From: Patescibacteria group bacterium | Lineage (GTDB): Bacteria; Patescibacteriota; JACMRA01 | NCBI GenBank assembly: GCA_038751365.1 | Contig: JBCDGH010000001.1 | Coordinates: forward strand, 2,851 to 66,850 | Direction of reading: 5' to 3' | Length of the DNA stretch: 64,000 nucleotides | In this document: one piece after another, positions 36,682 through 40,723 of the stretch | Layout of the letters: each line of letters starts with the position of its first letter | How positions within the stretch are numbered: position 1 is the first letter of the stretch | The notes under the pieces: generated by a model | What the model saw: only the letters and a program-made list of their open reading frames with translations | What the model was told of the DNA's origin: nothing | The model's database searches: none | Position numbers and translations under genes: made by a program

Positions 36682-37824
36682 TTGGCAGTTAAACTCTTTA
36701 ATGAGTACTGTTGTACTAAAAAACGTTCTAAGCCAAAGAATGAAGTTTATGTTCTGATAAGTGCAGCTTCTCACGAAGAAGGAGAAAATATTGGAAGAAC
36801 ATTAAAATTACTTGAGGAGCAAAATATAAACCAAGATGAATATTTGATAGTTGTATTTTGTAACAAGCCATTCAACGCTATAGACATTACGACTAGCTAT
36901 ATTGATCAAAAAATTTGTAACCTGATTAACATTGGTCATAGTTGGAGTAAAGAAGAGTTACCAATGGTAAACATGGGAAGGGTAAAAAAAGTAAACGCCG
37001 ACTTTGCTATGCTGCTAGCTGCATCTCATAACGCCTTAGATCCAATTTTTATTAGCCTGGATGCGGACATTATAAATTGCTCTAAGTCACTGGTTGAGAC
37101 TTACACTAGAATGTTTAGATCAAATGATCAACCTTTCTCAATTTTAGGTAAAGTTGATTGGGATAAGTATGAAATTAACGATCTCTTTAGGGTTGGTATT
37201 AGAATATTTCAGTACATTGATGCTTTCGATAGACACGCAGGCAGCACCAGCAATAATCTCTTAGCAAAGTTTCCGCGTGTAATTGAGTCCAATGGGTGTA
37301 ATTTTGCATTTAAAGGTTCAGTATATTGCAAAGTAAACGGCTTTGACCCCAAACAAGATTTACAAAATTGTATAGTCGGTTGTGAAGCTGATTTTGGTTA
37401 TCGTTTACAAGATATATACCACCCTTATCAAGCTATGAAATATGGAGGTAAAGGAACTTATGTCGTAACATCAAGTCGCAGAGGTGTAATTACATTCAAT
37501 AATGGGCTTGCTCCACATGAAATGTGGCGTTCTTGGGGAAAGCTTGGTAGTGAAGGTCGAAAATTAGAAATTTTAAAACCTTTCAAGGCAAGCCAAGATC
37601 CTGTTCGATTTCAACTAGAATCAGAGAGGATCTTCAATAGAACAATTTCATCCAATTTTGGTGAAAACTGTCTGACAGGTTCACAAAAAGAAATTTACTC
37701 TGAATTAGTGAAAAAACTAGCTTTGTTAATGGGGTTCAAGGTAGAAACAAAATCTTCATATGTAACAATAGTTAATGTGGATAAGATTCTACAGAGACTT
37801 AATGAGTTATTAATTAGAGAATAA
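36682..37824 (+). CDS. GT2-like glycosyltransferase (putative)
   Basis: VYVLISAASHEEGENIGRTLKLLEEQ...YLIVVFCN and SLDADII (DxD-like). The only in-frame start is the TTG at 36682, so the N-terminus is uncertain. Confidence 0.45.
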   Translation: MAVKLFNEYCCTKKRSKPKNEVYVLISAASHEEGENIGRTLKLLEEQNINQDEYLIVVFCNKPFNAIDITTSYIDQKICNLINIGHSWSKEELPMVNMGRVKKVNADFAMLLAASHNALDPIFISLDADIINCSKSLVETYTRMFRSNDQPFSILGKVDWDKYEINDLFRVGIRIFQYIDAFDRHAGSTSNNLLAKFPRVIESNGCNFAFKGSVYCKVNGFDPKQDLQNCIVGCEADFGYRLQDIYHPYQAMKYGGKGTYVVTSSRRGVITFNNGLAPHEMWRSWGKLGSEGRKLEILKPFKASQDPVRFQLESERIFNRTISSNFGENCLTGSQKEIYSELVKKLALLMGFKVETKSSYVTIVNVDKILQRLNELLIRE

Positions 37825-38169: not shown

Positions 38170-39078
38170 TTATTTCTGACAGACTTTGCAATATACAGTT
38201 GTTCTGCCTGCTAGCTGTATTTTCTCTAAAATAGTACCACAAACAAAACATTTCTCTCCTCCTCTACCGTACACCTTATGCTCATGAGCATAGTTACCTC
38301 TGCTACCGTCCGCTAGCAAGTAATTGGCTACTGAAGAACCGCCTAGCTGAACTGCTAAGGGTAAGATACGCTTGATAGCATTATACAAGGATTCTATCTC
38401 AGCTTTTTTTAGTGATTTTATAGTTCTCATAGGGCGTACGCCAGCTTCAAAACAAACCTCGTCAGCATAAATATTTCCTAGTCCTACAACTGCTTTTTGG
38501 TCTAAAAAGACTTTCTTCAATACTCCAGTGCGTAGTTTAAGTTGAGTTCTAAAACTTTCTAAACTAAAATCTTCGTCTAAAGGTTCTAAACCAAGAGTCT
38601 TGAAATGCTCAGCTTTGTCCATGTCTACTTGAGACGGATAGTATAATAAATAACCAAATTGCCTAACATCGTTATAAAACAAAGTACCATTATCGAGCTT
38701 CAGAATAACATAACTATGTTTATTCGGTAGTTTGCTTTCACTATCTTTGATTGGGTGACCTCCCCAAATAGGTTTTTTGCCACTAGAATCATGATCTCCT
38801 TGAAAAACTAGCTGACCAGTCATTTTCAAATGTACAAGTAGTAAACCATTATTATCTAAATGAAATATTAGGTTCTTTGCTCTTCTGGTAATATTAGTTA
38901 TTTTGGAGTCTGTTAAACCTTCGATAAATTCCTGTGTCTTTACTTTTGATGATTTTCTGGCTGTACCTGAGGATGAAACTAGTTTAGGGAGCAAAACTTC
39001 TACATTCTTAATAGTCTGTCCTGTTACATAGGGTAACAAACTTCGTCTTAAACTTTCTACTTCAGGTAGCTCTGGCAT
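38170..39078 (-). CDS. mutM: Formamidopyrimidine-DNA glycosylase (Fpg/MutM)
   Basis: Start set at MPELPEVE (39078). C-terminal zinc finger CFVCGT....GRTTVYCKVCQ. Confidence 0.85.
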   Translation of the reverse strand: MPELPEVESLRRSLLPYVTGQTIKNVEVLLPKLVSSSGTARKSSKVKTQEFIEGLTDSKITNITRRAKNLIFHLDNNGLLLVHLKMTGQLVFQGDHDSSGKKPIWGGHPIKDSESKLPNKHSYVILKLDNGTLFYNDVRQFGYLLYYPSQVDMDKAEHFKTLGLEPLDEDFSLESFRTQLKLRTGVLKKVFLDQKAVVGLGNIYADEVCFEAGVRPMRTIKSLKKAEIESLYNAIKRILPLAVQLGGSSVANYLLADGSRGNYAHEHKVYGRGGEKCFVCGTILEKIQLAGRTTVYCKVCQK

Positions 39079-39173
39079 ATAATTATATTTGCTATAAGAT
39101 ATGATCATAGTCAAATAAAGATAGTAAATATGTACAAATTGACTACTATTCAAGATTGCGTTTTTAGATATAT

Positions 39174-39989
39174 ATGAGTTCGAATGAATACACTGAGCTA
39201 AAGTCTGCCTCAGTTTGGATTTTTAGGAAATATTTAGATTTAGAAAAAATTTTAGATGATAGCTTAGAAAGTTATGAATTGAGTCATAGTGTAGATTCTC
39301 TGTATAAATTCTTATGGGATTACTATGCTAATTGGTATGTAGAGTATCTCAAGACAGACGATACTCAGCTTAATTTCTCCAAAGAATTGTTTAAGCAATA
39401 TATTGTTACACTATCACCATATTTACCTTTCGAGACGGAAGTCTTGTGGTCAGAGTTTTTTAAGGAAACCACTTTGCTAGCAAAAGAAATCAAGGACTAT
39501 AATTGGTCAAAACACGTGTTAGAGCTTTTAAATAAAAATCTAGATAAAGCAGATGAATTTGAGAACGTAATTCAATTCATTGAAAGTCTTAGGTCTATGA
39601 GAGGATTGTTTGCTATAGACCCAGCTAATTACATCCAGCTTTTTAGCACTGATTCGGTTCTTAACCAATATTCTGAGTTCATTAAATTGGTTGGGCGAGC
39701 CGAAATTGTGAATCAGGAGCGAGAGAATTTGTATACGATTCATAGTGGTCAAATAGTTTGTACAGTAAATATTTTTGAATACATAAAAGACCGTCAAGCT
39801 GAAATTGTAAGAACCCAAAAAATTATTAAGAGCTTAAGCAAGCAAATAGTCAGTCTTGAAACACAACTGAATAATCAAAAATTTATTGAAAAGGCGGAGT
39901 CCGAAGTCATCCAGGAGAAAAGGCAGAGTTTAACTGATCGTCAAATGGATTTAAAACAGCAAGAAGATAAGCTAAAAGTTTTAAATTAG
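39174..39989 (+). CDS. Stand-alone ValRS C-terminal fragment (anticodon-binding domain plus C-terminal coiled coil)
   Basis: SASVWIFRKY..SYELSHSVDSLYKFLWDYYANWYVEYLK..LSPYLPFETEVLW aligns with E. coli ValRS [46 protein letters not shown]. The tail NNQKFIEKAESEVIQEKRQSL resembles [20 protein letters not shown]. An in-frame TAG at 39165-39167 precludes any upstream extension. Confidence 0.75.
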   Translation: MSSNEYTELKSASVWIFRKYLDLEKILDDSLESYELSHSVDSLYKFLWDYYANWYVEYLKTDDTQLNFSKELFKQYIVTLSPYLPFETEVLWSEFFKETTLLAKEIKDYNWSKHVLELLNKNLDKADEFENVIQFIESLRSMRGLFAIDPANYIQLFSTDSVLNQYSEFIKLVGRAEIVNQERENLYTIHSGQIVCTVNIFEYIKDRQAEIVRTQKIIKSLSKQIVSLETQLNNQKFIEKAESEVIQEKRQSLTDRQMDLKQQEDKLKVLN

Positions 39990-40150: not shown

Positions 40151-40723
40151 ATGAGATTCTCTTCAGAAGAAGTAAACGAAATCAAATTTGCTGATGGTAG
40201 TGATCTTAGTATTGGTGAATTTACGCATAGTGAGGAGGTTACACTCCCAATTCTGATAGTAGCCGCTTGTAGAGTGAAGCCACATCCATATTTATTAAAT
40301 CAACATGTTACGCTCGATCTAATAAGCCAACATGGTGAATGGGGTAAATCCAATATAATCAGGTTAGAGGAAAAGGTAAATATTGATGATAAAATACTGT
40401 TTCAAATTAGACCTGGGCAAAAACACCCTTCCCATGTAAGCAAAAAAGAGCCAGAACGAACATCTTTAATATATCTCGAATTTGATAAAATAAACGATAG
40501 TTCTTATGAGCTTAGAGCAGCTTATCCACGGTCAAAATACGATCCTGGAGAAGAGCCGATATCTCCACATATTGATCCGTTTTGTGAAGAAGGGAGGGTA
40601 GAAAGAGATTTGTGTTTAGAGAAATGGTGTAATTATGCTTATCCATATAACAGCGAGGTAGATAGTTTTACTTCCTCATGGAAAGAAGTTATTAATGAAT
40701 ATGGTGATGAATATCATTGGTAA
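40151..40723 (+). CDS. Hypothetical protein
   Basis: AAGAGGA SD 8 nt upstream of the ATG and a hairpin/T-run downstream. No recognised domain. Confidence 0.5.
   Translation: MRFSSEEVNEIKFADGSDLSIGEFTHSEEVTLPILIVAACRVKPHPYLLNQHVTLDLISQHGEWGKSNIIRLEEKVNIDDKILFQIRPGQKHPSHVSKKEPERTSLIYLEFDKINDSSYELRAAYPRSKYDPGEEPISPHIDPFCEEGRVERDLCLEKWCNYAYPYNSEVDSFTSSWKEVINEYGDEYHW

Follow-up and report, generated by a model that had tools for sequence, protein, structure and literature searches.

Results

The locus of valS-C

The window analysed here, a stretch of 64,000 nucleotides from a Patescibacteria group bacterium, carries on its forward strand a 271-aa ORF (valS-C) that begins with ATG and has an intact frame; its coordinates include the stop codon. 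The following features were assigned at this locus:

39174..39989, + strand: valS-C, very probably the tail subunit gene of a two-gene ValRS (Pfam, NF004349, AlphaFold2 model, fold matches)
39216..39608, + strand: helical anticodon-binding domain, residues 15-145 (Pfam PF08264 Anticodon_1, profile positions 3-135 of 148)
39795..39977, + strand: C-terminal coiled-coil tRNA-binding arm, residues 208-268 (Pfam PF10458 Val_tRNA-synt_C; model helices 207-233 and 243-270)
39139..39144, + strand: TTGACT, a -35-like hexamer and candidate for the gene's own promoter (comparison of relatives)
39165..39167, + strand: in-frame TAG (sequence)
38170..39078, - strand: mutM/fpg, divergent neighbour, listed as context and not as part of the enzyme (Pfam)

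The original prediction, made from the sequence without database searches, had assigned this ORF to the anticodon-binding domain and coiled coil of ValRS, and profile searches confirm this. Besides the matches to PF08264 (E 1.3e-15) and PF10458 (E 2.6e-8; 34.4 bits against a cut-off of 25.9), the NCBIfam valS equivalog NF004349 aligns with valS-C at profile positions 587-859 of 860 (E 5.3e-32). Assignment to another class I synthetase, which the prediction had named as an outcome that would speak against it, did not result: the ileS profile scored far more weakly (E 1e-5), and the anticodon-binding domain was best matched by valS, not by ileS or leuS, profiles. The profile match aligns to residues 621-858 of T. 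thermophilus ValRS (1gax). This enzyme (1gax_A, E 9e-8) and the C-terminal domain of P. aeruginosa ValRS (4xkz) were also the best PDB fold matches (Foldseek) of the AlphaFold2 model of valS-C, which reached a pLDDT of 93.5 and a pTM of 0.84. As the domain in 4xkz was crystallised by itself, a ValRS tail fragment can fold alone. Judged by its sequence, the ORF is the helical anticodon-binding domain plus the C-terminal coiled coil of ValRS.

The surroundings of the ORF are as predicted. The in-frame TAG closes the frame two codons 5' of the valS-C ATG, and the upstream neighbour on the opposite strand is mutM/fpg, with Fapy_DNA_glyco, H2TH and zinc finger domains in Pfam. Its likely ATG lies at 39078, with the protein beginning MPELPEVE, which leaves a divergent intergenic gap of 95 nt to valS-C; no ValRS catalytic body adjoins. 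The order of mutM and valS-C is kept in the closest metagenomic relatives (65% identity; loci L119 and L120), with gyrB further downstream. The contigs nearest to this lineage come from JGI samples 3300082793 and 3300080907. Two further ORFs in the window, one of 190 aa between valS-C and gyrB (40151-40723) and one of 380 aa upstream of mutM (36682-37824), had no Pfam match at E 0.1.

TTGACT begins exactly 35 nt before the A of the valS-C ATG, and TTGAC occurs 35-40 nt before the ATG of the C-terminal piece in 7 of 15 genomes with a split valS, from 5 genera. Set against a chance expectation of 2.2% per upstream interval, this gives a binomial P of ~1e-8, a value that has to be read in the light of the kinship of these genomes, which are not independent. 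A scan for consensus promoters and terminators called nothing next to valS-C, TTGACT included, and a Shine-Dalgarno sequence is absent between TTGACT and the ATG. We infer from these signals that valS-C probably has its own promoter and a leaderless or near-leaderless mRNA.

The catalytic body of ValRS is encoded on another contig

In the genome that holds the window (G000; 1.15 Mb in 64 contigs, 88% complete), a PF00133 search returned four loci: IleRS (contig C5), LeuRS in two frames (C1), a 505-aa frame (C22) and a 959-aa ORF (C28). The LeuRS matches are distributed over two distinct frames, one of 626 and one of 392 aa (G000:C1:52954-56952), which confirms the earlier statement that the window contains, with leuS, a second fragmented class Ia synthetase.

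The ORF on C28 (P0002) is the body of ValRS. It matches NF004349 with 490 bits at profile positions 26-583 and contains a HIGH-type motif (..HAGHAF..), the CP1 editing domain (..GTGALKITP..) and KMSKS at residues 882-886. Its TAA stop comes about 10 residues past the helix '..NKLWNVARF', and 36 nt further on a YgjP-like metallopeptidase gene begins. By alignment, the break corresponds approximately to residues 595-600 of T. thermophilus ValRS, 73 residues past KMSKS, and lies in the loop that follows the first helix in the helical anticodon-binding domain; this helix is missing from the domain in valS-C and is supplied by the N-terminal piece. Since the NF004349 matches end at 583 and resume at 587, the pieces abut on the profile; together they cover positions 26 to 859, each with its own start and stop, without overlap or gap. 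Taken singly, the pieces score 490 and 111 bits and stay below the curated valS cut-off of 704, as expected for an enzyme that is split and carries insertions.

Body and tail lie on different contigs. The original prediction had proposed looking for a complementary valS that ends just after KMSKS, and C28 provides it; its remark that no catalytic body is adjacent was likewise borne out, while the label 'orphan' is misleading, because the partner gene exists, though unlinked. Neither a whole valS, the other gene that it had proposed looking for, nor a second tail was found by PF00133 and PF08264 searches of this 88% complete assembly, in which PF08264 occurs only three times, in LeuRS-C, IleRS and valS-C. 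G000 also encodes tRNA-Val(GAC) and tRNA-Val(UAC), both with A35, C36 and A73. A35 and A73 are the main valine identity elements of tRNA-Val (PMC9976931), so that a body without an anticodon reader would be expected to be a poor and unspecific enzyme.

P0002 further contains a nested Ham1/ITPase module (PF01725, E 2.7e-13) at residues 40-229 (L001:868-1437), between the N-terminal helix and HIGH. G000, G001 and close metagenomic kin are the only ones observed to have Ham1 within ValRS. Ham1 modules of relatives (about 48-50% identical) are nested in ABC-F ATPases, in AspRS together with Nudix and GNAT, in phosphoglycerate mutase and in 6-phosphogluconate dehydrogenase, and Ham1 is a free 225-aa gene in G018 and G022.

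The same break recurs in relatives

We compared 25 further genomes from this family, 14 of which have the tail in a short frame of 265-330 aa and the rest as part of a long frame, so that about 15 genomes of the family have the same break in the same loop. In every split genome with an assembled end of the N-terminal piece (12 of 15), this piece stops 0-13 residues past the same helix, and the frames of the C-terminal piece open 7-15 codons before the next conserved helix ('..SAS.WIL..'). Relatives with a whole valS have a variable linker of 10 to 80 residues at this position, indicating that the break sits in a length-tolerant loop.

The closed 1.27-Mb genome of the relative G018 contains the same two valS pieces, 5.3 kb apart, and no other valS. 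G022, G012, G008 and G018 have both halves on the same strand at a distance of 1.8 to 5.3 kb; what lies in between varies and includes genes for a YgjP-like peptidase, a PIN toxin and an amine oxidase as well as unknown genes. Each half has its own contig and different neighbours in G000 and its congener G001. A search of 5.8 billion proteins yielded 63 stand-alone homologues of the tail, 41-65% identical and nearly all 259-300 aa long (range 202-359), of which 62 contain the Anticodon_1 domain. The ORF is thus conserved and not degraded, which answers the earlier question about its state in relatives. Clusters of short proteins with Anticodon_1 plus Val_tRNA-synt_C occur in the ESM Atlas in many phyla; they are probably mostly contig-end fragments and were not counted as split genes. 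A search of genome contigs for related loci returned only an unrelated whole ValRS of Acholeplasmataceae, at 25% identity.

Several genomes showed other irregularities of valS. In G025, from a neighbouring family, valS lies in three pieces on the same strand with other cut sites (G025:C25:28418-36748; L082, L126), one cut being at about residue 818 of P0002, before '..TDFEKFYPT..', and with about 4 kb between pieces 2 and 3. In G014, a single in-frame TAG (L083:2809-2811; G014:C49) replaces the conserved Glu of '..ERSKT.IEPLISEE..' in an otherwise whole valS; a sequencing error, a recent nonsense mutation or the beginning of a fission could each explain this. Besides its tail, G021 has another tail fragment that is broken (G021:C8:2419-2622), a 74-aa frame with one TAA that is 59% identical over residues 8-75, and G010 has two copies of the C-terminal part of the body on different contigs (G010:C12:2-643 and G010:C42:1178-2509); strain mixture or duplication may underlie these two cases.

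Both pieces are under purifying selection and are predicted to fit together

For the congeneric split pair G018 and G022, the method of Nei and Gojobori gave dN/dS values of 0.159/1.40 (about 0.11) for the tail and 0.144/0.93 (about 0.15) for the body, with dS near saturation, indicating that the tail is as constrained as the catalytic body. In the ValRS tree, the split lineages showed no branch lengthening.

Residues 250-959 of the body were modelled together with the tail in three runs, alongside three controls. The complex scored 0.78 in the three runs, against 0.01 for the best control. Of 80 solved complexes, 58 attain this score mark, as do 2 of 110 mismatched pairs; both counts are only rough guides here, since custom alignments were used. 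At least 96% of contacts are common to the runs, with a partner pLDDT of at least 86 and 105 interface contacts, and the predicted interface places residues 279-291, 901-915 and 936-954 (the last helix) of the body against residues 31-107 of the tail. As the modelled geometry is that of whole ValRS, the model may owe the pass to solved structures that it has memorised. The prediction therefore speaks to likeness to whole ValRS and not to binding, and the pass is expected from that likeness.

History of the split

A tree of GyrB alone was too poorly resolved to count fissions and was replaced by a species tree of RpoB, RpoC and GyrB (2943 columns; 23 of 29 inner branches with SH-aLRT of at least 95). 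On this tree, the split state needs at least five changes, as three sister-group relations illustrate: G002 (whole) pairs with G008 (split), G007 (whole) with the split genomes G012, G004 and G019, and G011 (split) with the whole genomes G009, G006 and G020. The ValRS tree itself needs four changes. A single origin of the split state was rejected on both the species tree (p-AU 3e-33) and the ValRS tree (p-AU 0.0016).

All outgroups are whole at the break site, and the simplest reading is therefore that this loop was cut four or five times independently; alternatively, re-fusion of the pieces or an exchange of valS alleles among lineages may account for the pattern. The gene behind the body bears on this question. 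A YgjP-like gene (PF01863) follows the body piece in three non-sister split lineages, G000/G001, G018/G022 and G012 (here with one gene between), at these positions:

L001:3666-4214, YgjP-like gene behind the body
L073:2475-3020, YgjP-like gene behind the body
L069:4515-5060, YgjP-like gene behind the body
L070:4145-4690, YgjP-like gene behind the body
L071:5277-5900, YgjP-like gene behind the body

In the whole genomes and the other split genomes examined, the YgjP-like gene is located elsewhere, in G007, G009, G016, G002 and G005 on other contigs than valS. This recurrence does not fit well with independent fissions. An ancestral position of ygjP downstream of a whole valS was rejected, none being found within 1.5 kb of any whole valS examined. 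We regard it as quite possible, if somewhat short of probable, that the loop after the first helix is a recurrent site of fission, which was cut independently four or five times or was cut and rejoined, and that the gap then widens until the halves are unlinked.

Nested modules and apparently split gyrB genes in the family

Five split genomes carry a serine-hydrolase (alpha/beta) domain between '..DTWFSS..' and '..TDFEKFYPT..' of ValRS (G008, at L072:603-3176, and G013, G021, G024 and G010), and the whole ValRS of G006 (L026) contains a GNAT acetyltransferase domain. The nesting of modules such as Ham1, Nudix, GNAT and serine hydrolase in synthetases of this family points to unusually loose architectural constraints on translation enzymes in these reduced genomes. 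The gyrB gene also appears to be split in G006, G020 and G009, with residues ~9-228 and ~231-590 in separate short frames:

G006:C15:56578-57666, short gyrB frame
G006:C12:43090-43752, short gyrB frame, on a different contig from the preceding one
G020:C6:8267-9334, short gyrB frame
G009:C6:42027-42695, short gyrB frame

Discussion

We consider it highly likely that the ORF at 39174-39989 is the small, anticodon-binding subunit of a conserved ValRS that is encoded by two unlinked genes. This reading, which the original prediction had offered as one of three options under the name of a trans-acting subunit of a split ValRS, is supported by the complementarity of the pieces, the lack of a whole gene in the sequence searched, conservation and purifying selection, and the ValRS fold. 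Separate expression, assembly and activity of such an enzyme can be pictured as follows. Each of the two genes is probably transcribed and translated on its own. The product of the larger one, a subunit of 959 aa, comprises the nested Ham1/ITPase module, the Rossmann catalytic fold with HIGH and KMSKS, the domain for CP1 editing and the stem-contact region, and ends with helix one of the anticodon bundle; the small subunit of 271 aa contributes the remainder of this bundle and the C-terminal coiled coil. In a non-covalent assembly of the two chains, the bundle of the small subunit (31-107) would take up the last helix of the large one (about residues 936-954), and the normal architecture of ValRS would thereby be rebuilt; the complex would then charge tRNA-Val via the usual A35 and A73 identity elements.

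Alternatively, the tail could be a free-standing tRNA-binding or regulatory protein apart from ValRS, in which case the truncated body would charge tRNA alone or with another partner. Such a role would be compatible with the ability of an isolated ValRS C-terminal domain to fold alone (PDB 4xkz) and with the unlinked halves and differing neighbours in the genus of G000. The distribution of the pieces is strictly complementary, however, in that the body is cut in the same loop wherever a stand-alone tail is accompanied by an assembled end of the N-terminal piece (12 of 15), and none of the genomes with a whole valS has an extra intact tail. Moreover, the body has retained the bundle's first helix, which would lie exposed without a tail, body and tail share a large predicted interface of 105 contacts, and valine identity depends on the anticodon base A35 (PMC9976931). 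With a partner body at hand, the free-standing protein that the original prediction had listed is not needed, and we regard it as improbable.

That a whole valS is hidden in the unassembled 12% of G000, with the two pieces being redundant leftovers of a duplication, might be entertained for a genome that is 88% complete in 64 contigs. Yet the closed genome of G018 and 13 other split genomes show only the pieces, and both pieces are under purifying selection in the G018/G022 pair, making this a very improbable explanation.

The remaining option of the original prediction, a decaying remnant of a formerly whole valS, draws on the fact that the ORF covers only one third of ValRS, and short remnants do exist, as the 74-aa frame with its TAA in G021 illustrates. 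The frame of valS-C, by contrast, is intact over 271 aa, has 63 intact homologues at 41-65% identity and a high-confidence fold model, and is the only source of a ValRS anticodon-binding domain that the PF08264 search of G000 returned; together with the dN/dS of about 0.11 for the tail in the split pair, this conservation refutes decay, which we take to be extremely unlikely.

Split inteins rejoin some split essential genes, such as cyanobacterial dnaE, and RNA trans-splicing could likewise turn two valS products into one chain; but an N-intein of ~100 aa and a C-intein of ~35 aa would find no room at ends that lie 0-13 (N-terminal piece) and 7-15 residues (C-terminal piece) from the homologous helices and carry no extra residues, and searches of both junctions for introns or other RNA families in Rfam were without matches and so gave no sign of intron-based joining, which renders a rejoined chain hardly credible.

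A conserved ValRS of two separately encoded subunits would mean that a living lineage can keep catalysis and anticodon recognition separate, both in its genes and in their expression. To our knowledge, ValRS has been taken to be a single-chain monomer throughout bacteria, and we know of no natural case of separate encoding of these two functions other than the LeuRS of Aquifex, all further examples being fragment complementation in the laboratory. A search of the full-text literature returned no description of a natural split ValRS, nor of split synthetases in Patescibacteria/CPR. What is added here are the unlinked halves, the Ham1 module nested in the partner and a formal test of the number of state changes. 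On the practical side, such genes pass for truncated or missing ones in genome annotation and in completeness estimates, and phylogenies that use valS as a marker mis-handle them. The patchy occurrence of whole and split forms in close relatives offers matched pairs in which the cost or benefit of fission can be tested, and, if the loop is indeed a recurrent fission site, the family would represent a natural, replicated experiment on an essential single-chain enzyme becoming a two-subunit one.

The proposed mechanism, non-covalent reassembly of fragments, has a laboratory precedent: MetRS and IleRS fragments cut in surface loops by the Schimmel laboratory in the early 1990s reportedly reassemble non-covalently into active enzyme. 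Unlike these constructs, the two-gene ValRS is a natural and conserved gene arrangement. With T. thermophilus ValRS (1GAX), it shares the domain order of HIGH, CP1 editing, KMSKS, anticodon-binding domain and coiled coil, as well as the identity elements of tRNA-Val, but differs from it in the break of the chain near residues 595-600 (1GAX numbering), in the nested Ham1/ITPase module that precedes HIGH, and in having its genes on different contigs. The alpha-beta LeuRS of Aquifex aeolicus, the established precedent in nature, is a class Ia synthetase that is encoded by two genes and forms a heterodimer, in which one chain bears the active site and the other the tRNA-binding parts (Xu et al. 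2002, as cited in PMC2377443). Here, too, there are two genes. The present case differs from Aquifex LeuRS in that it concerns ValRS in another lineage, with a break after the first helix of the anticodon bundle, 73 residues past KMSKS, and in that the split, known here from genes and a model, is patchy within one family instead of being fixed in the lineage.
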